From assembly GCA_030167865.1 (NCBI GenBank), contig JALAGF010000799.1:1-64000 (forward strand): 64,000 nucleotides of DNA. Direction: 5' to 3'. A model generated the notes under the pieces. That model was not told the origin of the DNA. It searched no databases and worked only from the letters and a program-made list of their open reading frames with translations. This document shows positions 9,801 through 57,362 of the stretch, piece after piece. A program made the translations under genes and the position numbers. Numbering within the stretch: position 1 is the stretch's first letter; each line of letters begins with the position of its first letter. This DNA is from Craspedostauros australis. Lineage: Eukaryota.

Positions 9801-12800
9801 CCGATGGACTGGCCAGATTTCAGAGCCGCTGCGCCGAAGGCTGTGAAGTCGTTCATGCTCCGCACGACAGCATCGAAGATCCGTGCGTAGATGTCCTTGG
9901 CAAGGGCGTCACGGGCCTCGTATGCCGCCTGCGGTGGCATGCCGACCCTGACATCGACGCTGTTGCCTGGTGTTCGCAGCAGTCGGGATGTGAGCGACGA
10001 TTCCAGATCTGCTGCTGGCAATCCGGTCATCGCAGATAGCTTGTTCAGCGCTTCCTCGGACGTCACGCTCGTGCCCTGGCCCAGCACTTCATCGAAGGTG
10101 AGGTTCCCAAGCTGCAGCACGATGATCAGAGCGCGCATGAGCTCTTCGAGGTCGGCACCGTAGATCTTGAACAGCTTTAGAGCAGCGCACGTGGAGTGCC
10201 AGTTGTCTTCGTCCGCAAAGCCATCCGACAACGCGGCAGACTGCGAAAGGAACGCGTAGTCACTGGCAGTGGATGTGCCGAATCCGTCGAAGAATTTGTC
10301 CTTGGTGGCTGAGGGCGCCGCGAGGAGCTGGTAGAAGATGTGATATGATCTCTCGTTGTCATCGTGGTGGACAACTCGGCTCTTTTCGAGGAGGTAGGTC
10401 GTCGTTTTGCTCCCGACGAGGTCAGTGTACGGAACTGCCCTGCCAGCGTTGATGGAGGCGTCTTCGGGTTCCAGCAAGAACTGCAGCTGGATGAATCGGC
10501 CAAATCGCGAGCTGTTGTCATTGCGAGTTGTCTTGGCATTGCCGAACGCTTCGAAGATCGGTGAGGACTGGCACACTCTGGACACGATCTCTTGCGCCGT
10601 GACGTGTTCCGCATCGACTCCCTCTGGTCTCGTTTCCTGAACCGTCGCCAGATGCGTGATGACGATCTTGACGGATTCCGTCTTGCCGGCACCAGATTCG
10701 CCTGTGAAGAGAATCGTCTGGTTCTCGCCACCAGTTGCGAGTCCCCTGTAGGCTGACGAGGACACCTCGTAGACATGCGGGTCAAGCGCGGTTCTGTCGC
10801 CCATGGTGACCTTCTCCGAGATGCCCGTGATCGTGCTGCCATCGTCACCGTCTCTGTGCGCCTCCCAGATGTAGTGAGTGGCGTACTCGTCCCTCGTGTC
10901 AGACGAGTACAGCTCGTTGATCCATCTGAATGGATTCATGGCGATCACGATATCGCCAACTCTCGTGTACGGCTTGGATCGGTAGTGCCTGTCTTTCAGA
11001 TTGTACAGGATAGCAGCATCGTGGAGGTGGATGAGATCCGCCATGTCCGACTTGCCTTCGCTGCCGACCAACGAGTTCTGCTGCGGCAGTTCACCGTCGG
11101 TGTAGTCCGCGAAGAGCACCTTGCGCAGGGAGCAGGCACTGCGGATGCCATTCTGCTTCATCAGATCGGCGATCTCATCGTCGGATCTATTTTTCAGAGA
11201 TGGATGCCGTTGCAGGGAGTTCTTGAACAGGGCCTCGGAATTGACGGTCGTGTCTTCCCAGTCGTCACTCTCGATGATGTTCACGATCACCCCATCATCC
11301 TCGTGCTTGGTGATCTTGGCAGGAAGCCATGCGAAAGCTCTGTCCTTGACGTAGACGCCCTTGACGGACTTCTTGGGGTCGAAGGGGAGAGCATCAAATC
11401 CGCTCAACTGCGCGTGTGTCCACGCCGATGATTTCTTCTGCCTCGAGAAGTGCGCGTACTGTGCATCTGACAACCTCGATTGCTTCGCGATCTTCTTGCG
11501 ATGGGATTTCCTTGGTGTCACGTCCGGGCTGACGATCGCTGCGGGCTTGTCCATCGACACCGCAGGCTTGGATTGGGTCATGATTGCCTCGAGCGCGCCA
11601 GGTGCGTTATCCTTGGTGTTGACATCATCGCCGGCGATGTCCTTCTTCTCCTCGCTCACAGCTTCCTCGAGTTCTTTGGCGATGCTGCGCGGTTCATGGC
11701 GAGATGAGGTGCCCTCTTTGGACGCTGCGGTCATCGTGATGTCTGACATATCTCCGGAGATCTGGTTGCTGCTGTTACCTCCTCCCCCTTGGATTTCCAG
11801 GTGGGACAATCGAAAGGACTGCTCTTTGCGTGAGGGGCTTCCGATGCTGTCAAGTTCCTTGTCGATCGGCGAGTCATTGCTTTGGCTCACCACCACCTCT
11901 TCCAGGGGCCTGTTGGCTTGCTTCACTAATTCTGGTGTGACCGCCTCGTCGGCTGTAGCAATGCCGTCAACTGGCTGGTCGTCCATCTCCGCATCTGCCA
12001 TATCGGCGTGCACCTCTTCGGCCGAGTCCACCTGAAGGATCGCCAGATCGACATCATCTTCCAAGTCGAGAGGACGGGCATTGCGTTGCTTCTCCTTCAG
12101 TGCGCGTCCGTACTTGGTATCATCCTCCTCGAGTCGACGAACGGCCACGATGCGCAGGAGCGATGTGAATTCCACAGGGAATTCGTCCTCGTCAGTTTCG
12201 ATGATGTACAGGTCGTTGGCCTTTGCCGTCAGGGTGTGATCCATGATGGCATCATGCACCGATGGAAAGAACCAGGCGCGATCGTCCATGTAGCACTTCA
12301 GCTCGGCAACGTTGGATGCTGCTTCGTGCAGCACATCCGCGACTGTTGGAGACAGCTCGATGCCCAATTCCGATTTCAATTCGTCCAGGATCGATTGCAT
12401 CTGGTCACGGATGCGCTGGAGCCGTTCCTCGCGTTGTTCCGGTGTCATGGGGATGCGCTTCAAATCGTCCTCGTTTGGCTCATCTCCGCCGACGTTGGTT
12501 GCTTCTGAGGATGGTGATAAGACATCGACGTCCTTGTCAGTCTCGCTTGCAGTGGGTTCAACACCGTCACGCTGTTCGTCATCACCAGCTTCGACAGCGT
12601 CAGCATCATCATGAACTGGAAGCGGAACAACATCAACGACCACAAAGTCCTCCAAGGCCGACGGCGTGAGATCGATCGGCATGGACATGGTCTCGCGATG
12701 TTCCACGTTGACGGCATCCGTCTTATGCAGCCTAGCAGCGACCATGACCAACGTCGTGATGAGTTCGGCCGGGATCATCTTCTCGTCTTGCAGATGCGCG

Positions 12801-15040: not shown

Positions 15041-16701
15041 CGTGATACGACTGCGGGTACCTCCACCAGCAAGACCACCAGCACCTCCACGAGCACCAAT
15101 CGGCTTCTTTCTCCAATCACTCGCTCGCCACGATCATGCGGCGCACCTAAAAACTTGGCGCTGCTTTGATGGGATAGAACGATGCGCTCTGCTATGTGTT
15201 GCATACCAACGGCAACGCCTACTATGCCATCGACATGGAGCCAACGCTCGAGGTTGTAAGTTGGAACGGACGAAGTGCTTTGGAAGTGCGCGATGTCGTC
15301 CGTTTTTGCTTCCTCGTCTTTTTTGGCGCGATACTTGCCCACAACACTTCCGCGGAACAGGTCGCAATAACGAGGAACTACTCGCTCGAAACCTCGTAGA
15401 CTGCACCTCGGACGCAGCGACGTTGAGAACCTGGCAGGCGCGAAACACTCCCACCACTGCTTCAAACACACATTAATTATCGTGTGGATGCCATTCATCC
15501 AACGGCAGCGCGGATGGGCGTTACGCTGACCGAGGCGCCCAAAAATAAACCGGATGTTCTTGCGATCTGCGAACACTCAGCAACACGCAACACTGCGGAG
15601 ACGAACATTCCGTCCATTCCATCTATTATAATTGCATGACGGGCTGGGATAGAGTCGATTAGACTTGTCTCTGTCCAAACATCAGAAAGACGACTGCAGA
15701 GGGATGGTGTCTGGTTTGGTCTGGGCATGATGTGACGATCTTTGTCTTGGAGGAAACGCGCCACTGCATGTCCTTGGAAGGATCGCCACAAATCTGGCTC
15801 CCGCACTGCTTCCACTGCTGCCACACAATGCCACCCTCCACGTTGCAACCAGAGATGTCGCGCTCTCCCTCTCCAGACAGTAAATGGTTCCTGATCACAA
15901 GATGGGGTCTCAAGGACAGCATTACAGTTTCTTCTCGTTGTTCATGAAGCCTCCACCATCGCATCAGCTGTCGTATTGGCGCATGGAATCGATGATGCTT
16001 TCTGAAGATGCTGTTGGCCTCCTGACATGTCAGAGCAACTGAGAATACACAAGGACCACAACTACTCATGAGTAATGGGTATCACGAGGGGAGGTATAAT
16101 ATGTATCTAGACAGAGTATAGCATTCTATTATGCATCCTTTGTGTCCTCACATTCCTTCCTGTACCTGCCTTTTCCTGTTGCAGACCTCATCTCTCTCCA
16201 CAGAGAATTGCTCAAATTGACGCCAACCCCGACGCAGTAGCGGCATCATTGATTCGGCATAGTACAGGACTTTCCTCGTGTGCCCTCCACGAGACTCATC
16301 TACTCTAAATCGCAATAGTCACATGCTTCTGCAGATGGAGACGGAGGCCGCCGAAATTTGTCGCAGAAACGCCGTTCGCGCATCAGTTCAGCGGCGATTC
16401 TCTTTCTTCCTCAGAACAAACCAGAACTTCGGTTTGCACTCATTGTGCTTGCGCGTGAGCGCCACATTCTTCCCAATTGATGGTGACACCCATGACTAGC
16501 GCAGAACACCGGCATCAAAAGGTCATTGTGCGCGTACTCGTAATCTGACTGTATGGTACTATGGTGCGTCGAATGTTCTCGGTTAGATTAGCTTGTTCCA
16601 TTCAGACTGAAGTATTCTACTCTAGCATATATACTCAACCCTCTATTGTTTGCTTACTTGCTTATTTGTTCATCCTGCTGCTTGCTCTCGTTGGACACGC
16701 T

Positions 16702-26128: not shown

Positions 26129-28930
26129 TTAGGCATCATGCTCGCTGTTGTTGTTGCTGCTGTTGTTTTCGTTGTCGCTTCCGTTGTTGTCGCTTCCGTT
26201 GTTGGCCGTTTCGCCGATCTTGTCTGGCTTTCCGACGTCGTCGTCGTCGTCGTCACCATGCTCCGACGCGGAGCTGAATGGCTTGGGTCCGAAGACGGCC
26301 AGCAGAACCGGAAGGAAGATGAGACCGTGGCTGATGCCCAAGATGACGGTGAGGGCAAGTTGGCGCGATAGGGTCACGAAGACGTACGAGGATGAGAACA
26401 GAAGGACGACGACGGCGAGGAAGGTGGAGATGGCACCGCTGAGGACGGCGGCTCCGATGTCCGTCAAGGCCTCGAGGGCGCGGGCGTTCTTGTCGTCGCC
26501 ACCCTTCACCATGAAGCAATGTCCGACGTGGGCGCTGTAATCGACGGAAAGGCCGACGGCCAGCACGATGTTGATCACGCTGACGGAGTCGATGACGATG
26601 CCGAAGGCGAACATGAAGCCGAGAATCTCGACGATGCAGAAGGCGACGTTGATCGTGATGAGGATGGAAGTGACAGGACTGGCGACGGTCAGGAAGACAA
26701 TGACGCCGACGGAGGCGATGGCCAAACCGACGTTGAGGAAGAGCTCACGACGGATGATCTTGAAGCCTTCGATGGTGAGGAACTTGCTGCTGTATGGCGT
26801 GGCGGGTGGGAGGTCGTCCCAGCTGTCGACGAGGGTGCGCGTGTCGTCCATGGCCTCGATCTGGCGCTCGGCATCATCGATGACTTCGCCGCGCAGCTTC
26901 TTGACGAGGCGGACGTACTCGAGTTCCACCTTGACGGCCTGCAGCTTTCCGTCATCCGACAAGGACACATCGGGGGCGTACTGGGAACCATCCGATCCAC
27001 GGGCAACGTAGGCGTCGAGCACAGTGACGAAGTCCGCCTCTGTCGTTGGCCAGTTGTCGTCACCGAGGGTGATGTTGGCAGCGGGGCCGGTGCTTCCGTT
27101 GGCTGTGAGGTAGTCTCTCAAGCCCTTCATGACATTCTTGTAAACCTCGTTGGAAATTGGCTCAGCGATGTATGGCGACTTTTCGGAGAGGCCGGAGACA
27201 CGGGTCTCGAGGTTGGCGAGCTCGACACGCGATGCGTAGATCTGGGCAGAATCCTCAAAGACGATCTCCAAGGCGATGCCTTGTGATGGAAAGTAGTCGT
27301 CGGTGGCTTCGAAGTAGTCGTTGAGGTAGCTGTCGGCCGGGATGAAGCTGCGCTGCGAATCTTCGACGGAGAGGTTGAGGGCACCGTAGACGCCGAAACC
27401 GAAGAGACCGAGGAACACGACGAAGACGACGGCCTTTCCGACGCCGGACAGGATGGCGGGTGCGTGGTAGTTGCGGAAGTAACGCGACATGAAGTCCTCC
27501 TTGAAGGCATCGCCCTCGTCTTCCTCCAGATCCTGCTTGCGGGTGAGGCAGCACAGACACTCGCGGCGGTTGTCACGCTGACGACGTTCGTCGAGGACGA
27601 GGCAGGCGGTGAAGAATGTGGAGGCGAAGAGCCAGAGGAAGAAGATGCAGATGGCGGCGTAGGCGCAGAAACTTGCGAGGGCCGGCAGGGCGGATGATGA
27701 GGAGATGGCGAAGGCGACGAGATCGGTGGCAGATGTGACCGTGATGGAAGCTCCGGAGCGCGCCAAGGCGCGCGCAGAACGGACTGCCAAGATCTCATTG
27801 GTTTCGGACGATCGGGATGTCTTGCGCTCGCGGTTGAAGGCGTTGACGATGACGAAGGCGTCATCGACACCGATACCCAGGAGGATGAATGGCAGGAGGG
27901 AGTGGACCGGACCGAAGAAGAGACCGACGAGAGAAGAAAGACCGAATCCGGCAGCCGTACTCAAACCGACGGTGACGAGGGCACCGAGGGACATGGTCCA
28001 ACGCGAGCCTGTTCCGCACTTGAGGTTTCCGAGGTTGGCGCCGAGGAAGAGGAAGGCGATGACGTAGGAGATCTGCACGAGGGCGAGATCACCAGAGATG
28101 GCACCTCCGAATTCATCACCAAAACTGCGCCCGGCAAAGTAATCGACCTGGATGGTATCGTAGTCCTTGACGGATTCCGCACCCTCGAGGAAGACCTGCT
28201 CCTCCCAACCCTCGTTGATTGGATCCATCTCATCTCCGTCCTTGACGATGACACGGGATTCCAGGAAGTAGGCCAGGGTGAAGGCCTCGGCCTCCTGAAT
28301 GTTACCATCGGCATCGAAGACCGGGTTTCCGAGCACGGCGGAGATCTCGTCCTTCGATCCGTATCCTTGCAGCGTCTGGAGGATGTTGTCATCGGCCTCG
28401 AGGGTCTCCATGTCGTAGTTCCATTGCTTGAGGATGCTGGAAACAAGGCAGCCGCAGATTCCGTCGAACTTGGACGCGCAGCTTCCGCCAGCCTTGACGC
28501 AGAGCTCGGTGTAGGTGTAGAGCTTGTCGTCGCCTTCCGCATGCTCGGCATCGCTGTCCGTAATCTCGGCAACCTCGGTCTCGATGAAGGTATGCAGCTT
28601 CATGGCCTCCACGAGTCGCTCCTTGGTGAGGACGTTGGCGCCGTCGCCCTTGGGCTGTACGATGATGCTGTTGAAGCGCGACGTGCTGGCGTAGTAGGAC
28701 TCGTAGAGGTCCGTCTCGGACTCCGCCGTGGTGTCCTGCGGCACCCAGAGCTTCTCGCCTCGGTTCTCAGTCTCCCACGTGGCGAATCCGCCACCCATGA
28801 GGACTGTCAGGAGGATGGCAAGCGCGATAGTCTTGCGCGGCGCATTGCCGACGAAGGTTCCGATCGAGTAGAACGTGGCGCTGATTGCGCCCTCGATGCG
28901 ATCGCCGAAGGCTTCGATGCAGCTTGCCAT
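26129..28930 (-). CDS. Patched/NPC1-family (RND superfamily) sterol-sensing-domain membrane protein, 933 aa
   Basis: About 12 hydrophobic segments in a 1+5/1+5 layout. Motifs: LWVP, LLPFILLGIGVDDAF, GASITVTSATD, PALASFC, AVGLSVDYSAH, HGLIFLPVLL. Strong coding codon bias. Confidence 0.93.
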   Translation of the reverse strand: MASCIEAFGDRIEGAISATFYSIGTFVGNAPRKTIALAILLTVLMGGGFATWETENRGEKLWVPQDTTAESETDLYESYYASTSRFNSIIVQPKGDGANVLTKERLVEAMKLHTFIETEVAEITDSDAEHAEGDDKLYTYTELCVKAGGSCASKFDGICGCLVSSILKQWNYDMETLEADDNILQTLQGYGSKDEISAVLGNPVFDADGNIQEAEAFTLAYFLESRVIVKDGDEMDPINEGWEEQVFLEGAESVKDYDTIQVDYFAGRSFGDEFGGAISGDLALVQISYVIAFLFLGANLGNLKCGTGSRWTMSLGALVTVGLSTAAGFGLSSLVGLFFGPVHSLLPFILLGIGVDDAFVIVNAFNRERKTSRSSETNEILAVRSARALARSGASITVTSATDLVAFAISSSSALPALASFCAYAAICIFFLWLFASTFFTACLVLDERRQRDNRRECLCCLTRKQDLEEDEGDAFKEDFMSRYFRNYHAPAILSGVGKAVVFVVFLGLFGFGVYGALNLSVEDSQRSFIPADSYLNDYFEATDDYFPSQGIALEIVFEDSAQIYASRVELANLETRVSGLSEKSPYIAEPISNEVYKNVMKGLRDYLTANGSTGPAANITLGDDNWPTTEADFVTVLDAYVARGSDGSQYAPDVSLSDDGKLQAVKVELEYVRLVKKLRGEVIDDAERQIEAMDDTRTLVDSWDDLPPATPYSSKFLTIEGFKIIRRELFLNVGLAIASVGVIVFLTVASPVTSILITINVAFCIVEILGFMFAFGIVIDSVSVINIVLAVGLSVDYSAHVGHCFMVKGGDDKNARALEALTDIGAAVLSGAISTFLAVVVLLFSSSYVFVTLSRQLALTVILGISHGLIFLPVLLAVFGPKPFSSASEHGDDDDDDVGKPDKIGETANNGSDNNGSDNENNSSNNNSEHDA

Positions 28931-29974
28931 GGTGGTGTCGTTTGATATGTTGTGTTGTGATGTATGTAGTGTTATGCTGTGTTGTGCTGTATGTAGTGTG
29001 GTGCGGTGCAGGGTGATACGCTCTCAGCTGTGCTATTACACGCCGTCTTTTGTATCAATTGTGATGCTTTGATGGAATGCTGTGATTGCGTTGTTGTTTG
29101 TGGTGGTTGCCTTTCAATGAGTTCAAAGACAGGTTTTATGAGCTGACGGAGAAGTTTGCTGACCTGTCCGTGGATGGATGGAACGCAATGCAATGCACAA
29201 TGATGCTATGTGGGGTGATGCAATGTCCAGCGATCGTACGAAGTTGCTCTGCGAAGGGTTCGTAGATGGCTTGCGCTGACTTCGGATGGCACGGATGTGA
29301 TTCAGAAGGCGGAAACGTCCGGCAACAGGGACAAGCCAACAACCAACAGTCAACAGTCAACAGAACCGGTGAAGCGATGTGCGTGGTGGTGGTTGTTGTT
29401 GTTTGATGTGTATCGCGATGCGAGACAAGAAGGACGAGAGGCGTCGGGAAAGAAAATAAAGTCAGTGACGATCGTGTTGGAGCAGAGTGTTCCAAACTTA
29501 GCGGCGCTGTGGTCCACGATCTCGGCAAGCCTCAACCGTCTACGTATGTACTCAGAACGTATGCTACAATGGGTTGTGGTTGGTGCCGCGAACGCGCCTG
29601 AAGATCCGCGAATTCGAAATACAGGCACCTCGTTGATTTTAGCGGTGCGTGTGTGTGATGTGTGATGTGTGATGTGGTGAGTTGTCGAATGGCTGGCTCG
29701 CGTCCCAACGCCTCAAGTGACCCGCATTGTTTGAGCATTTTGCTTTCCTGTTGCTGACGCATCAGCTATGACTTGGCGTCATCGTCGCGGTTGTTCTTGA
29801 CGCGATAAGTACGAAAGTATGGTAGTTGTGCCTGCGCAGTTCACTAAGTATCAAATGTCTGATTAATGAGCCCAGAATGGGCTGACGTCATGCACCGTGT
29901 CCACAGTGTTGCACAAAGGCGCCTCCATCCCACGTTGTCGAACAATCAAGAATTTGTTGCTATCTACTCTTCAT

Positions 29975-30033: not shown

Positions 30034-31079
30034 TATTTACGAGGACGAGTGCTATGGAGTGAGGGTCTGGGGCAGGTTCGGGTATCGACTGAATTCATTG
30101 TTGTTCTCAAACATGTCCAGACTTGTCTCCGCCACCCACAGACACGTTGGCCATCAGTGTTCAGCATCAGGTATGACGCAGCCAAACATCGAGGACATCC
30201 AAGATTGCAACAAGAACCGCCAAAATCGATTGCACGCCACAAATGAATCCTCCAGAACAACCGTCTCTGATCAATCTTGATGTGTTCCGAGCAACATCGA
30301 ACGCCATTCTCTGGAGAGAGAGCATGTTTCTCACCATCTCTCGAGAAGATTTCTGTGGAACCTCATCTTGCTTCCATGGGTGATTGCATCCGCCTGTGTG
30401 CTAGCACTTTGCTCGTGAAGACATTCATCGCATTCTCAACAAGATCAGATGGCTTTCCCCCCTTGTCCACGGCCTGTAGTCGACCCTCGGAAGGAGTGTA
30501 TTCCTGCTGCTTCTTTGGTGATCCCGACACAAGGCATGCCGAGCAACATCATCTCTGTCAACTTCATGGATAGATGATGGTGAACATTCATTCTTTTGTG
30601 GAGTGTACGAGTCAGAGAGAGTTAGAGCGAGAGAGAGAGAAAGAGATGAGGCGACTGAGATCAATTCGATTGGGTTTTTTCCTGTCAATCATATATAATA
30701 ATAAACCTATTATACCGCATATCTCAATACTAAATGAACAAGAACACACTTCAACAAATACCATGATACATGGAAGGACACGCTAATTTGCAGCAAGAAA
30801 AGAAATGTCCTCGACTCCATCGACCAACGCAGAACTCTCGATTCTTCGGACTAACGTCACACCCATCAACAAGCGCCAACCAAAACACCAACTAATCGAC
30901 ACATCAACACATCAACCCAATCTCAGAGACGCGCAAAACAACAAACAGTCTTTCGAGCGCTTGTTGCATCCACCGTATTACTCTCCCATACTCTACTCAG
31001 AGTACAAGCATCTGCACATCCCATCAGATTATCGCAGTAAGCATTATCCTACCAAATTACGACATACCCGTACGAGACG

Positions 31080-32789
31080 ATGGTGCGATTGACGCGACCA
31101 ACTCCCTCCAAGAACATTTGGCGATCATCCATCTCGGTGCTGGCATCTTCCCTGTTGCTTTGTGGCCAGGGCAGGATCACAACAACCACAGGCACGTTTG
31201 GGGCGGTGGCTGCATTCACACCCAACACTCCCAGCAACATGGACGTCGTGACCAATGCCAACAAGAAGATACGCAATGGAAATCGTCATCGTCATCAATC
31301 GAAGCAAAGAAACGCTGCACGATCAGCGCTATCCGTTTCGGCAGATGACTTTCAAGCTGACGACGGTCGGTCACCACTCCGCGATCCACCCAAATTGATC
31401 GTCTTTGATTTGGACAACACGTTGTGGACGCCGGAGCTCTACCAGCTGCGACGATTGGATCGCGCCGGGAAAACGCCGCTCGCCAACAAGGACGTGTCGT
31501 TGTTTCCAGGTTCCAGATCCGTTCTGAAACGCATCGAAGACGGGGAATTCGGCGATGCCACCCGATTCGGCGTCGCCTCCCGCACCAGCAAGGGTGAATG
31601 GGCCAACGATTTGCTGGATCAGTTCCAAATTCGCAAGAACTTTCCGTACATCGAGATCTTCCCGTCCAACAAGCGCAAGCATTTTGCGAATATTGCCGCG
31701 CAAAGCGGCATCGGGTATCACGAGATGCTGTTCTTCGACGATGCTCGTGGCGGCAGGTATGGCAACTGCGAACCCATCTCGGAACTGGGCGTCCTGTGCG
31801 TGCATTGCGCGTCGGGCATTGACAAGGAGAACGTCTTCGATCGGGCCTTGCAGTACTACCAGAAGGGTTGGGACGGTGCTCCTAACACTATCATCGAATG
31901 GGACGGCAGCGTTACCAACACGGCGGCTGCCGCCTCCACGGCTGTCGACACCTCGGCACGCCAAGAGGGCACCGTCAAGACGATCAACTACGACAAACGG
32001 TACGGGTTCATCAACTACGGCGACCGCAACACAAAGGACTTGTTCTTCCATTTCAGTGCCCTGCCCAGCTCCATGGCGGATTTCATCCAAGAGGGCGACT
32101 CAATCTCCTTCGGAATCGGCCGCGACGGCAAGACCGGCAAGTCGCGTGCCACAGATATCCAGGCATCTGGCACGCAAAACAGCAACATGAACAATGGCAA
32201 TGACGATGGCAATGATTCTGGCGACAAAATCACCGTGCGCGCGTTCTCCATGAACCTGCCATTCGCCGCGCTGTTGGCGAGCGAATGCAAGACGCTGGAA
32301 ACGCGCAACGGCACCATGTTCGTGCCGTACCCCGAGGGCACCTTCATGCTGCTGCATGTCGGCCAGCGCATTTATCCCGACGGTGGCAAGCACATGGACA
32401 TTCTGCGCGGCGGCGGCATGGACGATGCCGAAATCGAGCGGCTCAAATCCCTGCCGAAGGGCTTCCGCAAGGGCAACATCGTCGCCATCTGTGAATTGGG
32501 CAAGACGTACGAGACGACCGAGGAGGAACGCAACGTTCCCGATTTCCAACGCAAGGTGGGTGCGTACGGCAGCGACAGTGGACGTATCGTGACGGAAATC
32601 AAGCGCGCGGCGTATTTGAAGCGTCCCATAAACCAGTCGGGCAATCGCGGCGTGTTCAAAGCGAAGATCGATCCCTCCGTGCTTCCGGACGGGTGGCTGG
32701 AGGACATGCAGAAGCAGCAACCCGGCAACGTGGAGGACAGCGGCAGCAATGTCGATGGCAAGACCATGGTGTATTCCATCTCGGGCTGA
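31080..32789 (+). CDS. Multidomain protein (569 aa): probable plastid presequence, MDP-1-like HAD phosphatase, cold-shock domain, ASCH/PUA-like domain
   Basis: HAD motifs PKLIVFDLDNTLW, VASRT, K..HF, MLFFDD. Cold-shock domain GTVK....KRYGFI.....DLFFHFS....EGD.ISF....GK.RA. ASCH domain AFSMNLPFAALL...KTLETR...LLHVG...GNIVAICELG...PI...G.RGVF. Hydrophobic N-terminus with AVAAFTP. Confidence 0.9.
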   Translation: MVRLTRPTPSKNIWRSSISVLASSLLLCGQGRITTTTGTFGAVAAFTPNTPSNMDVVTNANKKIRNGNRHRHQSKQRNAARSALSVSADDFQADDGRSPLRDPPKLIVFDLDNTLWTPELYQLRRLDRAGKTPLANKDVSLFPGSRSVLKRIEDGEFGDATRFGVASRTSKGEWANDLLDQFQIRKNFPYIEIFPSNKRKHFANIAAQSGIGYHEMLFFDDARGGRYGNCEPISELGVLCVHCASGIDKENVFDRALQYYQKGWDGAPNTIIEWDGSVTNTAAAASTAVDTSARQEGTVKTINYDKRYGFINYGDRNTKDLFFHFSALPSSMADFIQEGDSISFGIGRDGKTGKSRATDIQASGTQNSNMNNGNDDGNDSGDKITVRAFSMNLPFAALLASECKTLETRNGTMFVPYPEGTFMLLHVGQRIYPDGGKHMDILRGGGMDDAEIERLKSLPKGFRKGNIVAICELGKTYETTEEERNVPDFQRKVGAYGSDSGRIVTEIKRAAYLKRPINQSGNRGVFKAKIDPSVLPDGWLEDMQKQQPGNVEDSGSNVDGKTMVYSISG

Positions 32790-36742: not shown

Positions 36743-37308
36743 GCCGACCATGCAATCAACCACCAAGGAGAGATCATGACGTGTGCAATCCACAAGCATC
36801 CATGTCAACGACCGAATGTTTCAGATATGAATGCGCATGGCCAACCGATGGATCTCGCCGCTTGCTGTCGGCCTGGGTCTTGTCACACAAGTCATCCTGT
36901 ATGCGAACGTCATTGGGATGCGCAAAAGTCTGAGAATGTGTGCGACCTCTGAAGAAGGAACTTCAACTTTCCGAAAATTTACACCGTAGAGCATTGGTAT
37001 TGATCGCAGCCACATGAACGCACATACTCTAGTACTCGTGCCACATCATACTATGCGAGCACACATGCCCTCACAGCAAAGAGCCATCGCGATGTGTGCA
37101 GCAAGATGGATTCGTCTGCTCAGGTGCACTTGCGTTCTCATAAACCTGGCAACTGCGGACCCAAAACGCTGGCGAGAGGAAGAGCACGAATACCAAGGTC
37201 GCAGTGCATACATACAATACAATACTCGATCAAACCACAGCTTGAACCACGAGTCCATCATCAATAACAGCAGCAAGACCAGTAGGAAACCCAACACTAT
37301 CTTCCACC

Positions 37309-39288
37309 ATGCTGAGCAAAGATAATGAAACCAGCTTGACTATGCTGAGCATGGAGCTCTCCGAGTTCTCAGTCATCGAAGAGGACTGCTACGTCCTCGA
37401 CGAGATCGAGGAGGTCGACGACGAAGCCGAAGAACATGATGGAGAGATCGGGGCCAGCGACATGAAGATGCTCAAGGGCGAGGCGTCGCACGCCAAGCAA
37501 TCCACCTCCATGCTCCTCGCTGCATTGGAAGCGGACATGAGCGAAGCACAGGACCTCATCAACAAGCTGAAGAATGGCACTGCGACAGCAACGGACAAGA
37601 GCCGTGTGCTTGACCTGAAGAAGAAGATCAGCAAGTCCAGATCCGCGACCGAAGCGGGCAAGGTTCGCGAAGACAAACTCAAGACGACGATCAGAGCTGA
37701 AGAAGAGAGCAGACGAGAGGCTTTCCGCAAGATCAAGATTCGTCAGATCAAGGGTATGGTCAACTCGGTCAAGAAAGCGGAGTCTGTGGATCTTGCATTC
37801 ATCGTTGATGCGACCTCATCCATGGGACCCCACATAGAGGCAGTGAAAAAGAACATCATCGCGATCGTCACACAGGTGAAAGGCTCCAATCGTAGTCTCA
37901 GCCTTCGGTTGGCCTTCGTTGCGTACAGAGACCTTTGTGACACCAACCGATTCGAAGTGCTCGACTTCGTGAAAGATGCAGGACGGTTCCAAACGTTCGT
38001 TGGGGGTATCAGGGCATCTGGCGGTGGCGATACCCCTGAGGACATGGCTGGCGGCATCCAACACGCCAATGCGCTTTCGTGGCGACAAGCTACGCGGGTT
38101 GCATTCATCGTGGCGGATTGTCCATGTCATGGGCGGGAGTTCCACAGTCTCGGCGATGACCATCCTAACGGAACACCAGGTATAGACATCAAGAAGGAAC
38201 TGCGTGCACTCATCGGCAACTGCGGCGAGGGCACCATGTCTGTCCAATTCGGACGCATCACGGCATTTTGTGACAGCATGATCGCGCGCTTCGTCCAAGA
38301 CGGCATCCACCTCAATGTTGTCGACTTCAGCAACGAATTGAAGGTCAAGACCTCCGTCACTTCGAGCGTCCGCAAGTCCATCTTCAAGACGATGTCGTTG
38401 GCTAGTGGAGGCACCAAGGCCGTCTCCTTTGACGAAGGTCCCAAGCGCAAGTCGCGCAAGGCGGCCCTCAAGCCATACAGCATCGAACCCAGACTCCCGA
38501 AAAGCGACGAGTGGACACCAGTCGCGTCCGTGAAGGTGTACCAGAACAAGCGCATCAAGAGCATCAACGACCTCCAAGCTCCTTTGTCGTTCGGGATGCT
38601 ATCATACTTTGATGGCAAGACCAAGACCGACGAGACCAAGGAATCGAAGATGTTCCTTCGCCGCGCCAAAGCACCCTTTGCCGAAGGCGGGTGCCGTCTC
38701 GCGTATCACGCAGAGCTCGCCCGCAAGGAGAAGTCGCTGGGGGCACCGAAGACGAAGGTCGTGCTCAAATGCTTCAAGCACCATGGCTTTGGTGTCAACG
38801 ACCGCATCCAGTACCTCAGACAGATGGAGGTCTCCAACATTGCCCGCTTCTTGGCCAAGGAGTACAACAATTCACCGTTTCGACCAGCGCATTGTGCGCG
38901 GATCCAAGTCTTGATGTCCTGCGTCGTCGAGGAAGAGGACGACGCGAATGAAAAGGACGGCAACCGCCGTTTCTGTGCCGAGGAGGTCCTCCCTTCGGAT
39001 GGTGACATGGATTTCACCAAATTCAGCAACAACACCGGATACTGGGACACCGACAACATGGACGAGACGCTCCTGCGTTTCACAAAGTTCACCCACGAGG
39101 CCACCAACTCGTACCTCATGGTGACAGACCTGCAGGGTGTCAAGAAGAACGGTAAGTTCTACCTCACGGATCCAGTGATCCTTTGCCGCGACATCATGCG
39201 ATTTGGCAACACCAACCTCGGCGAAACCTTCATGATCGAATGCATGGGGTCCACCGAGCATTTCATGAAGGAAAATGGTTGGAGTTGA
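37309..39288 (+). CDS. Alpha-kinase with von Willebrand A domain (VwkA-like architecture), 659 aa
   Basis: vWA domain: VDLAFIVDATSSM, LAFVAYRD, GGGDTPED, IVADCPCHG. Alpha-kinase domain: PFAEGGCRLAY, VVLKCF, FTKFSNNTG, LMVTDLQGV, LTDPVI, FGNTNLG. Confidence 0.93.
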   Translation: MLSKDNETSLTMLSMELSEFSVIEEDCYVLDEIEEVDDEAEEHDGEIGASDMKMLKGEASHAKQSTSMLLAALEADMSEAQDLINKLKNGTATATDKSRVLDLKKKISKSRSATEAGKVREDKLKTTIRAEEESRREAFRKIKIRQIKGMVNSVKKAESVDLAFIVDATSSMGPHIEAVKKNIIAIVTQVKGSNRSLSLRLAFVAYRDLCDTNRFEVLDFVKDAGRFQTFVGGIRASGGGDTPEDMAGGIQHANALSWRQATRVAFIVADCPCHGREFHSLGDDHPNGTPGIDIKKELRALIGNCGEGTMSVQFGRITAFCDSMIARFVQDGIHLNVVDFSNELKVKTSVTSSVRKSIFKTMSLASGGTKAVSFDEGPKRKSRKAALKPYSIEPRLPKSDEWTPVASVKVYQNKRIKSINDLQAPLSFGMLSYFDGKTKTDETKESKMFLRRAKAPFAEGGCRLAYHAELARKEKSLGAPKTKVVLKCFKHHGFGVNDRIQYLRQMEVSNIARFLAKEYNNSPFRPAHCARIQVLMSCVVEEEDDANEKDGNRRFCAEEVLPSDGDMDFTKFSNNTGYWDTDNMDETLLRFTKFTHEATNSYLMVTDLQGVKKNGKFYLTDPVILCRDIMRFGNTNLGETFMIECMGSTEHFMKENGWS

Positions 39289-51126: not shown

Positions 51127-51633
51127 TTCGTTGCACATCCACTGCGTTTGCCGACGCCTGCAGGGAAGCGCGCGGATTGAGAAAGCGACTCGCAAGAACG
51201 TGAACAATCCAATCGATCACGCGCTCAAGCTCTCCAACTTCGGCACAGAGCGCGAATTCTTCCGCGTGGTCCCAGCTGCTGCCGTGGATCGACCGACAAC
51301 CTGCTTCCGTTCAAGTATCCGTGCGGCCGTATCCATATCGGCATCGATATTGACATCCAAATCAGCAATTCTCGACATCGCTCCACGTTGTTCAAAGGTA
51401 CCTTGGTGACCCCTTTCGGTAGAAGAGGCCCGCTGCCAACAACGTCACATTGTTGCACACAAGACGACGGCGACGAAGTCAAGTCACCGTCACTCAATAT
51501 TGAGAAAGAAAAACGGCGCCAAGACGACGATCCAAAGGACGAATCGTCGTTGTATTGGCTGTCGTGGTTGCTGCCGCCGCGGAGCCGTCAAGCCCGCAAG
51601 GAAAGACGTAGTCGTCCAATTCCATCTGGCTTG

Positions 51634-54600
51634 ATGTCAAGTTCGGCAGCACCCAGCACGAGACCTGTGCCTGAGGACCCCGCCGTCGTCGATGACTCCA
51701 TCCGCCAACTGGACCGCGTCTTGCAGATGATGCGCCCCGACGAAACAGCCGCGTACAACTTGGCATGCCATGCATCGCCGCATCTCATCACAAGCCGCTC
51801 ACTTCGACTGCAGTTCTTGAGAGCAGAGGCATTCCAGCCCGGACTCGCGGCTCATCGATTAACGCAGTACTTCTCGACGGTCCAGAAAATGTTCGGCACG
51901 GAGCTGCTGGGACAGGAGCTTCGCCTTTCGCACCTCACGCCATCTGATATGAACATACTTCGGAATGGTGCCATCCAACAGCTCAGCCAGAAAGATATCG
52001 CGGGCTGCCCGCTGTTGTTTCACCATGACACTTGCCGTCGAACACAACCGGAAACCTTGGTAAGTGCTCTCGAAGCATAAATTGCCTGACGCTCTCACGA
52101 TTTTGATCAAGCAATCTTGCCACGTGACACCATCATTGCGCTAGGCTGCCACTCCATGCCATGCCAACGCGAGCTATCTTGCTCATACCCATGCAACGAA
52201 ACCGCGCATATTCTCATCGCCACTTTGCCCTTTTTGTCGCGAACCCCTTTCTACGCTCAATGTGGATGCCATGTGAACACCATGTGGACTTCTTGCTTGA
52301 ACCTTCCATGATGGTACGCGAACTCTTGCGCCAACGTATGCACACCACCACGACGGCCCACCTCGGATTCTGCATCCCTCTCCGTCAACGGATGTGTTCA
52401 TCGTGTATCGTGGCCTTCCGCTTGTTCGTCCACGTAGCTGAAAATCGCCCTGTACATCGTGGATGTCATATCCAGAGACACCCGAGTCCAAAAGTCAGGT
52501 ATCGTTCGTATTTGCTACGATGTCACCACAGATGACAATGGTCCCGCGGGACGATTGGGAGGAGCTCACTTCGATCAACTTCATGGTACTCAACGTCCCA
52601 ACAGCGACATCAACTACCAGCTCTTCTTGGGTTTGGAAGAATTCTTCAGATTCGCCGCGCCTGTTCGAGTTGAACGGCACCATCTCATCCAAGACACCGA
52701 AACGTACACGCATCGTCCCACTCTCAATATGTTCAAGAAGATCCTCTCCAAGGATGCGCAGCGACGATTTTCCTTTCATCTCAGTAAGTGCCACTCAGTG
52801 CGATGCCAAATCCAATGCTCTCACATTGATCAGCGAGATGGGCGCAGCTGCCTCTGGTACGCTCCCTTTCTGATCTGCTCAGTCTGAGAAGGAACCACGA
52901 CTGTGATAGGCATGATGCTTTGGTCGCTTCCATGCGTCACGTCGATGTACTCCATGTTGATGTACTTCGTGCGCATTGCAAAAGCCGAATTCCAGACTCT
53001 CCGAAAGCCGGCAAACGGAACGGCCGATGCTCTCGTCCATGTCCCCCACGATGTCTTCCCAAGCATTGCTTGTTGTTTGTATGCCTCTTGCTGACTGCGA
53101 ATTGATGCGATGGGTTGCCTGGAAGATGAGAGACGGCGTTACGAATGTCATGATGCCAATCCTCTTTGATGTTGCCACGTGGTTGAGTATATTGATGTTC
53201 ACATAGACACTCACCCGTTCGTTCATCTTTTCACGCGATTCGGCGACGCGTCTGTCTTGTTCTTCAATGTGGCCGCATATGTGTGCACGTAAATGTACCT
53301 TGTGACCTCTGCCATTTCGGTCTGCCTTGATCGACTCTGATGATCTTGAACGACCCCCGTCAACCACCTCTCAAACTCTCAGTATCCGCACAAGGCGTGA
53401 CGCCAAGTCTTGAAACGCATGGCATACAAATGTCATGCCTGCCCCTCGACACCCATCAACGTGTGAACACTGCGCAGCACCTTCAGTGGATCACGAGCAG
53501 GCAGATGACGGAACAGACAGATCTTGAGGATGCGAGCCAATTCATCCATCACAGGTTCGTCTCGTTTCCATCGTATGCGTCTGCGCAGACCTCGAGGGCA
53601 TCCGCATCCGCACCGGCGTTCGCAACCGCAACCGCCGCTTCGCCTGGGTTGGCTGGGGATACCTCGTTGGACGCTCCAATCAGCTCCATCGTCAATGACC
53701 CGCAATCGTATTCCCAGGGTGGGCATGCCCGCTCGCAGCCAACGCGGGATCTCAGAGTGGATAGCCCGGAGTCGAAGCTCGAAGTTCCGTCGCAGATACC
53801 TACGATGAAGACCATGCCAGCATTGCTCGCATTAGACTACGACTCGGAGGTACTGTCTGAGTATCAGTGCCTGCTGCGCCATCAAATAGAAGTATTTGTG
53901 GCCCAAGAGAACGACATTGAACCGATGACCGTCAAGCAGTCCAGGGTCATCGAGCTTGGGCAGGTGGGATTGCGCTGTAAGCACTGCGTTGACGACGAGG
54001 AGAAAGCTCCCGGTTCTGTCTACTTTCCAGGTAAGCGTGTCGTGATGTGGCGGATGGGTGCTATACCTGCACACGGCGAAGCGATGAGTTGTTTTCGGCT
54101 TGCCGCACGTGCGTAGTGGGTTGGTGGGATGCGTTTGCTCTCTTTGGGGTACAGATGCTCGCGCGGTACGACTGGAATGAACGCCCGACATCTGGTGCAT
54201 TCACATTCGCTGTGCCACTTAGTGTGGTGCAGTCTTGGGACGATGCCGCTACATCGAGCGGCGTTGCTTATGGATGATTGCACGGACGGGTCACATCGTG
54301 GACATGTATCGCGATTGATTGCCGACTCACGACTCTGTTCTGCCGTGCTCTGCCCTTGTTTCATGTCCATGACGTCGGTTACGATGACAACCGTGGCGGG
54401 CGTTGCGTGGATGTCCTTCGTTGGCGTGTGGGACGTCGGCTGTTGAAAACCTGCGTTCATGCAAAATGCCCTGATGTTCAGGTTCTCTCGGCATGCTCTA
54501 TCAGGCCGCCCAGAACCTGGCGAAGAATCATATCTGCAATCCAACAAATGGATGCAAGTCCATACCGAGCGACACCAAGGCAAAGCTCAGCCAGCTCCGA

Positions 54601-54762
54601 GCAGACAAGCGCCGTGCGGCGTCTGGGAAGGAGTATTGGAAGAACACAGCGGTGAAGGTGTTTGGGATCTACCAGCACAGCAAGGCCCTTTGGCTCCGGC
54701 AGCAGCGCTCAGCCCAAGCCCACCCGAGATCACCAGCCGCGGCTTCTGTAGATCAATCGTAA
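51634..54762 (+). CDS. Four-exon gene (~566 aa): diatom-type CRAL-TRIO-like domain fused to a diatom-type CxxC-containing C-terminal domain; exons 51634-52059, 52438-52783, 53383-54030, 54482-54762
   Basis: GT-AG introns with consistent phases (0,1,1) join four ORF pieces into one 1701-nt frame. N-part: AYNLA...LRLQFLRAEAFQP.LAA.RL..YF...LFG/MFG...KD.AG.P, QKSGIV. C-part: D...LSEYQCLLR.QIEVF.A...GQVGLRCKHC...GSVYFP..L..LYQAAQN....H. Start codon uncertain. Confidence 0.8.
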
Positions 54763-57362
54763 GTGGGCATGGGGTACGGGGTATGGAGTACGGGATACAG
54801 TGTCCACAGACACATACGCACACGCCACGAGGCCAGAGAGCGCGTGTGCATGTGGGTGTGTATGGATGGAGGTGCGGTAGTGCTGGCTCTTCGATTTGCC
54901 AGTGAGATGGTTCGGCGATGCAGCAGTCAGTTGATGAGGGGGCGGGAGTGTCGTGAGAGAAGGGATCACGTCGTGATCCATCTTCCACGACGTGCACCTG
55001 GCGGCGATGAGCGACGGTGCGATGTTGTGGCAAGAGCGTTCGGTGCGAAGCTCGGAAGTATTTCCATCAGTCGGTGCAGCCATCGCGGACAGCCCTTGTT
55101 ATTGTCGCATGGCGAGTGCGAGTGATCACCCACGCTCTGCAGGAGCACGAATCGGGTCGCTATGGCAGCGACGACGACGGCATTGTCGGAATGGAAGCCG
55201 ACAACGCTTGCGCTGGCAGAAGGAAGGAAATGCGTGGCGCCGACTCGTGGCGACAAAGCAGGATGACAGTGCGCATCCAAGATGCCTCGCCATTGCCCTC
55301 TCTTGCATCCTGAGCTGGTCTGGCCTGGCGTGGGCCCACCATCACATTTCTCTCTCTCTCTCTCTCTCTCCTCCCTTTCGTTCCATGTCCGAAGCATCCA
55401 CCGCACTATGGAGGTATTCAGCCTGTTGGTAGCAGCATCCGTATCTTGATGAAGTGTGAGGAAACGCCTGGATTATCAGCAGCTTCGGGAAGATGTGCGG
55501 GAAGGAAGGGCAACGGAGGTGGCCTTGTGGACAACGAGACAAAGCACCGCGCTGACCACCCACAATTAGGTGTGTCCTCACATGTCAATGTTCGGGAGGA
55601 AGCCGTCTGCAGGAACTCACTCTGTTTGTGTGGACGGAAGCGAGGTCAGGTGATGCAACACGCAGAAGGGGGAGACGTTGGGTTAGTAGAGGCCCGCTTG
55701 AGGTTTGGATCAGCGCGTTTAAGAATTGGATCACGCAGCGCTGAAGGCGCCAGATGTCGACTGCCATCGGTCATCATGCTGACGCTCTGGGGAGGGCACA
55801 ACCATCATCTCGCTGGATGTGACACGGCAGACGTGAATTTCGTGGCCAGACCACCGCAACCTCGAGCGGCCGCAAACAGTCATGGGCTGTTACTGCGTGG
55901 TATCGATGACTCCCAACGGCAGCTGCCCGCAATGACCCTCGCTCCTCTCATTGCGATGGTGCGCAATACCTATCGGCCGCGCACGGGCATTTTTCTTCCA
56001 CCTGAGACTCTGTCTGCGGCAGATAACCATCAATCGCCATGACGCAAAAGGAAGCAACCAAAAGACATGTGGCGCGGCACCTTTGAGGCCCCAGCGCTGG
56101 TGGGATGGTTAGCATTCGTGAAGTCTTCGTGTGCCCATAGAGATGGCGTAGAGTAATGTAGTGAAGTGAAATTGGGGCTTCGGACCGCAGGCTGGGTGCA
56201 CGCTTCTTCCAGAATCGACGGCAAGCTTTCGGTGCTGGGGAGGCAACTCGCGAGATGATGAGCTGCTGCCAGAGGGTAGAGATCCATGAGAATCCTCACC
56301 AACAACCTGATCGATGACCCCCTCCTCTTTTGCTGTTTTGTGTGTGGCGTTGACACGCATACCAATACACACACTTGCTGCTGCTTTCGGTCACACGGGT
56401 GGTCATCTGGTTGATGTCATGTGATGTGAGATGACGTCTGATGCTTTTTCAAGGACTGCGTGCTGCACAACATGCACGGGAGCTCCGACGACACCCACAA
56501 CCACAAGAGGAAGCGAAAGCAGGAAGAATTCCGCCACTCAGCCGAGGCGCGTACTTCGTCATTACCGTGTTCTGTCCTTCTCTGCAAGAATAGAAGTCTC
56601 CTCTGGGCTGCTCCGCCACGAAGATCAATCGCATCTGTTGTCACCACCGCTCCCGAACAGCGCTGTGGTCGCTTCTGCGTTGTCGCTGCTGCCCGTACGT
56701 TTCGCATCAGGCTCGTCATGGCGCGATTGTGTCAAAGCAGCTGAGCCGAAGTGTTCCGGTTCTGATGCGACAGAACCAGAACCCAAAGCAATCCTCCATC
56801 CTTGTCGGGGCACAGCAACACGAACGCACAACTCCGATTCTGGTAGCGACAACCAAGTGCAGCCTCTCTTCGGCAACAGCGAAGCGACACCTGGGGAAGG
56901 AGCCAAAAACCGCTGTAAACACGCAGGTGCATGTTCGCGCTTTCGGGGAAATGCTCGGAGAACAACCTCATCGAATGGTCCACTTAAGCGTCACTGGAAC
57001 GGCGTGTTCGCCAAAACGCAAACATGCTGATGTGTTGCACAAGAAGAAGCTGCACAGAATGGGTTCGGAAACAGCATAAAATAGGAACGTGATTTGTTTT
57101 GCATTTGTCGACTTCACATACTACATACGAAGCTAGGAATCGATGTTGGACGAGTAATAGCTCGTACGTGCACATCTCTCTGATCTCTCTTTCTCTGTGA
57201 GCAAGTCGAGAACGCAATGCGAATAAAAGAAGTGGAATGGGACAGCAAATGATCAATGTAGAGCACTTCAATCTTAGCATACTTCGGAGCGCTACATGTG
57301 AGTACTCTTTTCTGGATTGGAGCAAACCAAACCAACACATAGCACTGTTGGTCGAGCTGCGT

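Follow-up and report, generated by a model that had tools for sequence, protein, structure and literature searches.

A diatom gene predicted to fuse a CRAL-TRIO/Sec14-like module with an uncatalogued C-terminal CCHC domain

What would a protein do that carries a pocket for hydrophobic ligands in one half and a zinc-type domain in the other, and does the diatom Craspedostauros australis encode such a protein at all? The question is raised by a locus on the forward strand of contig JALAGF010000799.1 (assembly GCA_030167865.1), of which positions 1 to 64,000, referred to below as the window, have been analysed. A first-pass annotation of this DNA had proposed that four open reading frame (ORF) fragments between positions 51,634 and 54,762 splice into one protein, a CRAL-TRIO-like lipid-binding domain followed by a putative Zn-binding, nucleic-acid-binding domain, and that the pair might act as a ligand-regulated transcription factor. 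The reading that we favour, with a probability of roughly 0.55, is that the locus is a four-exon diatom nuclear gene for a 566-residue two-module protein that arose by fusion of neighbouring genes, in which the pocket would bind a ligand and the zinc domain would serve as a targeting or effector module.

The four plus-strand fragments join in phase to give 1701 nucleotides, corresponding to 566 codons and a TAA stop, with GT-AG borders at all three introns (Table 1) and a start codon at 51634 that is the earliest in-frame ATG of the exon 1 ORF. The GC content at third codon positions of the coding sequence is 0.63, versus an overall GC content of 0.51-0.56 in the introns. Because independent profiles match each domain continuously across the junctions, the gene model, although predicted from sequence, is more than a chance coincidence of phase. 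One of these profiles (A5) was built from 113 CRAL-TRIO-like relatives and the other, for the C-terminal domain (C-domain), from 338 domain instances, the window sequence being left out of both. Against the spliced protein A5 returns one continuous domain at residues 11-307 (222 bits, E 7e-70) that spans the exon 1/2 and 2/3 junctions, and the C-domain profile covers residues 406-536 (116.7 bits, E 3e-38) and spans the exon 3/4 junction. When single-exon ORFs are scored, A5 finds exon 1 at E 8e-39, exon 2 at E 1e-14 and exon 3 at E 2.9e-5, and the C-domain profile finds exon 3 at E 4e-21 and exon 4 at E 1e-9; the exon 3 ORF is thus matched by both, and among the 1455 six-frame ORFs of the window (at least 25 residues) just these four match either. 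At the junctions themselves, homologue alignments cross from exon 1 to exon 2 with gaps of just 1-2 residues nearby, BLAST alignments to the relatives P0148, P0126 and P0216 show no gap where exon 2 meets exon 3 (residue 258) and continue to residues 301-304, and exon 3 followed by exon 4 rebuilds a C-domain with the residue count and spacing seen in aligned homologues. Coordinates, intron borders and profile matches therefore agree with the proposal of a single spliced protein, and all of the motifs quoted in its support, from both halves, are present in the sequence.

The N-terminal half (residues 11-307) falls in a large diatom CRAL-TRIO-like subfamily: of the 1.84 billion representatives searched, 4086 match at E<=1e-3, and 2086 still do so at E<=1e-10. 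Our alignment of the family holds 113 of the best 150 listed relatives, namely those 250-620 residues long, and two of the protein searches spanned proteins of 378-2000 and 250-2000 residues, respectively, a range that short exon-wise calls of an orthologous fusion would escape. Pfam recognizes PF00650 in 18 of the 113 relatives, CRAL_TRIO_N (PF03765) in 14 and CRAL_TRIO_2 (PF13716) in 7, and A5 compared with the PDB retrieves CRALBP (6.9e-17), alpha-TTP (4.9e-16) and yeast Sec14 (0.019). The exons of the window split the domain in three, and their separate translations give no match to PF00650 or PF03765 at E<=1; the closest relative, P0008, which is 43% identical to exon 1 over 83% of that exon, reaches Pfam CRAL_TRIO at E 0.012 with 15.9 bits (cut-off 22.6). 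The fold has been judged by proxy on P0148, the best full-length relative, which is 28-30% identical to the window N-half and for which the AlphaFold2 (AF2) model has a predicted local distance difference test score (pLDDT) of 84 and a predicted template modelling score (pTM) of 0.82. With this model Foldseek gives 42 matches at E<=1e-3, to alpha-TTP, CRALBP and Sec14 proteins, the best at 4e-9 with a template modelling (TM) score of 0.68 and a probability of 1.0. Since family profile and proxy fold agree the CRAL-TRIO assignment is sound, and the N-half is, on this sequence and model evidence, a real though divergent CRAL-TRIO/Sec14-fold domain, as the FLRA...AA.RL..Y and D..G.P signatures had led the first-pass annotation to suppose.

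Within this half the core insertion encoded by exon 2 is common to P0148 and P0216 in the alignments, the Asp corresponding to D194 of P0148 is retained together with both Gly positions of the family (including G237), and the other near-invariant positions, checked by eye in the alignment, are all retained as well. For another diatom, Seminavis robusta, 40 genes of the CRAL-TRIO superfamily are reported to show a pennate signature (PMC7335047). No relatives came to light in metagenome locus scans for which exon 3 and P0008 served as queries.

The C-domain (residues 406-548, ~140 residues) belongs to a conserved family of its own. With an alignment as query, at least 729 proteins among 8000 scored candidates match at E<=1e-3, and the organism names among the best 120 of these 729 are all those of diatoms, of the genera Skeletonema, Thalassiosira, Cyclotella, Cylindrotheca, Nitzschia, Pseudo-nitzschia, Seminavis and Phaeodactylum. 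These listed relatives are annotated as 'hypothetical' throughout and a precomputed Pfam domain is found in 0 of the 120; direct Pfam scans matched none of 48 members, a PDB sequence search with the domain gave no match at E<=10, its neighbours in the ESM Atlas are diatom 'hypothetical protein' clusters without Pfam families, and a literature search for the Phaeodactylum tricornutum accessions of the family found nothing. The family appears to be uncatalogued in the Pfam copy used, in the PDB and in the literature searched.

What defines the domain is a near-invariant Cys-x2-Cys...His...Cys set (conserved at 98%, 95%, 96% and 98%, respectively, over the 338 instances), accompanied by an Asp column, a G-x2-G motif and two Pro columns. 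The window copy retains each of the four putative metal ligands and, of the 11 columns conserved at >=80%, 9. Such a set is typical of a structural zinc site, and the domain, discrete as had been predicted, probably binds zinc, to judge by this conservation. The basic KRR...GKEYW stretch that had been described as following the domain is present in the sequence but is not a separate segment, forming instead the conserved GGK-x-YW helix inside the C-domain. Here the proxy for the fold was P0098, 45% identical to the window domain, whose AF2 model has pLDDT values of 78-98 over the domain; in it the first two Cys follow a beta-strand and the His is part of a helix. While the model is confident it matches nothing solved: the best Foldseek hit has E 0.63, the highest Z that VIA-align assigns to any of 48,161 representative chains is 2.8, with none at Z>=5, and for all 275 top chains of Foldseek the VIA-align Z stays below 2. 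Such an absence of matches, as far as a model can tell, leaves room for a new DNA-binding fold. A winged helix in the second half of the domain had been suggested by a helix-helix-helix-hairpin order and by weak Foldseek, Atlas and VIA-align rows for SelB, ArgR, Fur and H1; we have rejected it as unsupported on the strength of the same best Z and of the Z values of Foldseek's top chains.

Among 123 relatives of the C-domain two layouts are found. In the 49 single-copy proteins the domain is always at the very C-terminus (median tail 2 residues), preceded by a median of 221 residues of low-complexity sequence rich in S/A/Q/P/N, with some poly-Q. The remaining 74 carry 3-5 copies in proteins of 528-1433 residues, mostly ~1100. 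The domain is mildly basic, with a median isoelectric point (pI) of 8.6 and a pI >8 in 64% of the 338 instances; the window copy has a pI of 8.8 and a net charge of +4. Two minor observations concern the family. Many diatoms have such a multi-copy protein (for example P0004, P0034, P0060 and P0077), in which the second and fourth copies have diverged much further than the first and third, and P0085 and P0124 (P. tricornutum B7G928 and B7G929) have consecutive accessions and lie on one 683-kb contig, probably as a tandem pair.

That the two domains share a reading frame follows from exon 3, a single open frame that runs from the last ~50 residues of the CRAL-TRIO-like domain through an acidic linker of ~100 residues into the first half of the C-domain, so that any message encoding the N-domain reads on into the C-domain. 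No homology was found for the linker (residues 308-405). The C-domain was sought in the best 150 of the 4086 N-relatives and found in none at E<=10, and the N-domain was sought in 123 of the 729 C-relatives and found in none, both lists being the top of the respective sets of matches. What N-relatives often carry instead is DUF6824 (PF20710), present in 47 of 113 by Pfam and in 56 of 150 by a local hidden Markov model (HMM), after the CRAL-TRIO-like domain in all eight bearers checked by Pfam and in the C-terminal part of those listed by the local HMM. No DUF6824 match was obtained at E<=10 among the six-frame ORFs of the window, nor by Pfam in the exons, and a kinship between DUF6824 and the C-domain, which we considered and rejected, is given a probability of 0.5% by hhalign. 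Because DUF6824 so often occupies that position in N-relatives, the window protein is, at the level of sequence comparison, the usual family layout with a different and unrelated end module; that its architecture is a variant of a common diatom arrangement had been missed by the first-pass annotation. A search of the literature for DUF6824 found no mention. Among the DUF6824 bearers, P0126, P0129, P0155 and P0133 (873-1079 residues) contain tandem pairs of CRAL-TRIO-like and DUF6824 units, which may be true duplications or merged gene models.

The origin of the pairing is illuminated by a second diatom, Nitzschia inconspicua, from which the best BLAST matches of both halves come. The N-half is matched best by P0148 (IV203_020764, with cluster mate IV203_018042) and the C-half by P0088 (IV203_018044, with cluster mate IV203_020766), and N- and C-matches occur together on two contigs, where their locus tags, like their protein accession numbers, differ by two. 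The halves are therefore separate neighbouring genes in this species, which had also gone unnoticed before. By a rough estimate, not a computed one, it is very unlikely that both best matches would fall two genes apart by chance, and the comparison suggests, as the simplest reading, that two linked neighbouring genes fused in the lineage of the window. A complex prediction for residues 55-393 of P0148 with residues 323-472 of P0088 returned the verdict 'no answer' and so provides no evidence either way.

From these results the following picture emerges. Module 1 (residues ~11-307) would provide a Sec14/CRAL-TRIO-fold pocket from a diatom-expanded subfamily, with alpha-TTP and CRALBP as its nearest solved relatives, and this pocket would bind a small hydrophobic ligand. 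Module 2 (~406-548), an undescribed diatom-restricted domain with a probable structural zinc site, would dock on a macromolecular partner, either nucleic acid or protein. The fusion, presumably expressed, would hard-wire a cooperation for which other diatoms rely on a pair of separate, linked genes; that the two families form one gene here and are separate neighbours in N. inconspicua suggests, by sequence and gene order, that the CRAL-TRIO-like pocket and CCHC families work together.

Several points weigh against this picture. The fusion is seen in no other protein of the two surveys, so that it may be young and its function is putative. One gene intervenes between the N- and C-family genes in N. 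inconspicua, and the two regions of that genome, being copies of each other with 97-98% identity, amount to a single observation. In the window protein Cys125 stands at the position of Arg198 of P0148, in a D-x-x-G-R turn where Arg is invariant in 113 of 113 relatives, and the G-R of the QGRN motif of the C-domain (84% and 81% conserved) is replaced by K-Q. Both structure models are of proxies at the identities given above and neither is of the window protein itself. The gene structure is a prediction from sequence, and three introns of 378-599 nucleotides are unusual beside the long uninterrupted ORFs of the neighbouring genes. A public run (X1), searched over 51400-55000, yields two contigs, 52286-52475 and 52531-53212, that are colinear and identical with the genome, contain no joints and include exon 2 and parts of introns 1 and 2; as the RNA label of this run is a guess and it may be genomic DNA, the contigs are uninformative on splicing and expression.

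The alternative that survives best, although we think it unlikely, is the one from which the work departed, namely a one-component ligand-regulated transcription factor in which the CCHC domain binds DNA sequence-specifically and occupancy of the pocket controls nuclear entry or DNA binding. The conserved CxxC...H...C set with its conserved Arg, Lys, Tyr and Trp, the mildly basic character of the domain, the expansion of the family and the 3-5 copies carried by 74 of the 123 relatives would all suit such a role, as would the position of the domain as last element after low-complexity sequence, a layout typical of lineage-specific transcription factors. These same features, however, suit RNA-binding or protein-binding domains, no DNA-binding family or fold was matched in Pfam, PDB sequences, Foldseek or VIA-align, and two of the conserved basic or Gly positions are missing from the window copy. 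AT-hook-like motifs, another candidate that we considered, are not enriched, occurring in 6 of 74 multi-repeat and 0 of 49 single-domain proteins versus 6 of 150 controls. Of the pairing of a pocket with a nucleic-acid-binding domain, then, the single frame stands, while a DNA-binding or transcription-factor role is supported by no result.

A bolder version of this idea, to which we give slightly less credence still, would have the two families form a Rosetta-stone pair in which the CCHC domain is a new diatom zinc-dependent DNA-binding fold and the fused protein, together with the split pairs, forms a lipid- or pigment-gated gene switch. Such a switch would be a diatom analogue of nuclear receptors, with oxylipins, sterols, tocopherol-like and retinoid- or carotenoid-derived molecules as candidate ligands.

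It is more doubtful that the locus is a young chimera without selected function, or a decaying one, in which a deletion joined neighbours in frame and the product is absent, unstable or neutral. The uniqueness of the fusion among 273 relatives examined, the exchange of the invariant Arg for Cys, the degenerate QGRN motif, the long introns and the fact that no RNA run containing the locus is on record are what one would expect of such a product. Against it, the reading frame stays open for all 566 codons of the four exons, whose splice sites fit the consensus, the ~100 codons of the linker are free of stops, both domains still reach high scores with independently built profiles (222 and 117 bits), the metal ligands and most conserved columns are kept and third codon positions are richer in GC than the introns. 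Least probable by far is that two genes have been mis-joined, the first a CRAL-TRIO gene made of exons 1-3a, the second a gene for the C-domain that comprises exons 3b-4 and would begin at an internal Met close to residue 399, for although the halves are separate genes in N. inconspicua and Met residues do lie just upstream of the C-domain, no stop separates the end of the CRAL-TRIO-like domain from the C-domain, so that N-domain transcripts continue into it, and a C-domain-only product would lack the long N-terminal region (at least 113 residues) found in 49 of 49 single-domain relatives.

How the fused protein that we favour compares with known systems depends on which module is considered. 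To alpha-TTP and CRALBP (PDB 3w67, 1oiz, 3hx3 and 3hy5) the N-half family is linked by a profile match of ~1e-16 over ~220 residues and, by proxy, by the TM score of 0.68, and an N-terminal helical part and an alpha/beta pocket domain are present in both. Identity is, however, just 17-20%, the separately translated exons of the window fall below the Pfam models, the subfamily differs by its core insertion and the window protein by the Cys in place of the family-invariant Arg, and alpha-TTP and CRALBP are single-domain carriers without a C-terminal zinc domain. Closer to home, diatom CRAL-TRIO-DUF6824 proteins such as P0190, P0157 and P0203 belong to the same N-subfamily (E down to 1e-30 and below) and share the order of pocket, linker and small C-terminal domain, but their end domain is unrelated to that of the window protein, which is without DUF6824. 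The C-domain, conversely, is 38-46% identical by BLAST to those of single-domain and four-repeat CCHC proteins of diatoms (N. inconspicua IV203_018044, P. tricornutum B7G928 and B7G929, Skeletonema menzelii ACHAWT_009413), with which it shares CxxC...H...C, G-x2-G, YFP, GK-x-YW and a C-terminal location; these proteins, annotated as hypothetical, differ in having low-complexity N-regions or tandem repeats and CRAL-TRIO in none of the 123 examined.

Multi-domain Sec14 proteins include Sec14-GOLD (SEC14L2/SPF), Sec14-nodulin and Sec14-RhoGEF/GAP, and the Sec14 domains of SPF, Kalirin and AtSFH5 are among the Foldseek matches of the P0148 model. They share with the window protein the principle of coupling a Sec14 pocket to a further module by which the pocket is localised or its state transduced, but the partner domain in the window belongs to none of their families. 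SEC14L2 has been termed a ligand-dependent transcriptional activator; it is not known to have a DNA-binding domain. Aureochromes (LOV plus bZIP), which are described as stramenopile-specific, and animal nuclear receptors combine a sensor pocket with a DNA-binding domain in a single polypeptide, which is how the model of the first-pass annotation would work; they have no homology to the window protein, in which DNA binding by the C-domain is hypothetical. A literature search for characterised diatom systems of this kind found none, in keeping with the first-pass annotation. Finally, BED and PARP-type fingers are CCHC-type zinc modules whose patterns resemble the C-domain in Cys-x2-Cys, an interval of ~30 residues and His-x3-7-Cys, but the C-domain (~140 residues) is far larger, the BED finger 2djr compared with its model gives Z 2.2, within noise, and the sequence searches gave no match.

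When two proteins are naturally fused in one diatom and encoded by linked genes in another, this is classical evidence for a shared process. The main value of the finding lies in this Rosetta-stone link, by which the locus ties together two large diatom families of uncharacterised function, and in drawing attention to an abundant domain whose predicted fold is confident but unmatched. One is the pocket family, an expanded CRAL-TRIO/Sec14 branch with 4086 representative clusters whose members usually end in a small orphan domain; the other is the CCHC family, abundant, diatom-only, with at least 729 proteins and a confident predicted structure that matches no solved fold. Should the CCHC domain bind DNA, it would represent a new diatom transcription-factor family and the fused protein a candidate lipid-sensing switch. 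Should it not, an uncatalogued family worth defining is left, and the layout of a pocket followed by a small C-terminal domain would be a general feature of diatom Sec14 biology.

Table 1. Features of the predicted gene; positions are those of the window and residue numbers those of the spliced protein.
Feature	Position	Strand	Content
Exon 1	51634-52059	+	Residues 1-142: start codon, CRAL_TRIO_N-like helical part (FLRA...AAHRL), first CRAL-TRIO core strands
Exon 1, D-I-A-G-C	residues 121-125	+	Inside first strands of CRAL-TRIO core
Intron 1	52060-52437	+	378 nucleotides, GTAAGT...TAG, phase 0
Exon 2	52438-52783	+	Residues 143-258: CRAL-TRIO core and subfamily-specific insertion
Intron 2	52784-53382	+	599 nucleotides, GTAAGT...CAG, phase 1
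Exon 3, first part	53383-53531	+	Residues 258-307: C-terminal end of CRAL-TRIO-like domain
Exon 3, middle	53532-53825	+	Residues 308-405: acidic S/A/P-rich linker, stop-free, pI 5.4
Exon 3, last part	53826-54030	+	Residues 406-474: first half of C-domain, including Cys456-x2-Cys459 (53976-53987)
Intron 3	54031-54481	+	451 nucleotides, GTAAGC...CAG, phase 1; interrupts C-domain after YFP
Exon 4	54482-54762	+	Residues 474-566 and TAA: second half of C-domain, then 18-residue tail
Exon 4 sites	His490 (54529-31), Cys498 (54553-55), Pro502, GK-x-YW helix	+	C-domain to ~residue 548 (54705)

Some details of the gene model deserve mention. An alternative AG at 53393-53394, 12 nucleotides 3' of the intron 2 acceptor, is in phase, and its use would shorten the protein by four residues and alter the residue at the junction; the upstream acceptor is favoured because of the spacing in homologues. 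A donor-like consensus GTAAGT at 54759-54764 overlaps the exon 4 TAA stop, which is probably used, given that relatives end directly after the domain, although an alternative 3' exon is conceivable. We have considered whether the introns are repeat insertions, and no second copies were found in the window. A nested minus-strand gene in intron 2 (52882-53370, 163 codons) was likewise considered; having no Pfam match and low Atlas recognition (965, best score 0.75), this ORF is probably not a gene.

The neighbouring genes of the window are mostly long single ORFs, to be set against the three long introns of the gene studied here. An uninterrupted minus-strand ORF of 2756 codons (6866-15133) encodes a myosin motor at residues 1362-2111 and an IQ motif, with ~1360 residues before the motor that have no Pfam match. 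Further along, a sterol-sensing-domain/Patched-like protein is encoded at 26132-29023 (minus strand) and a VWA and alpha-kinase protein at 37246-39285 (plus strand), and additional ORFs encode cyclin, SWIB, RNase T-type exonuclease, DUF6816 and ClpB-type AAA proteins. The plus-strand ORF 31041-32786 combines Acid_PPase (PF12689) with a cold-shock DNA-binding domain (PF00313), an unusual pairing.

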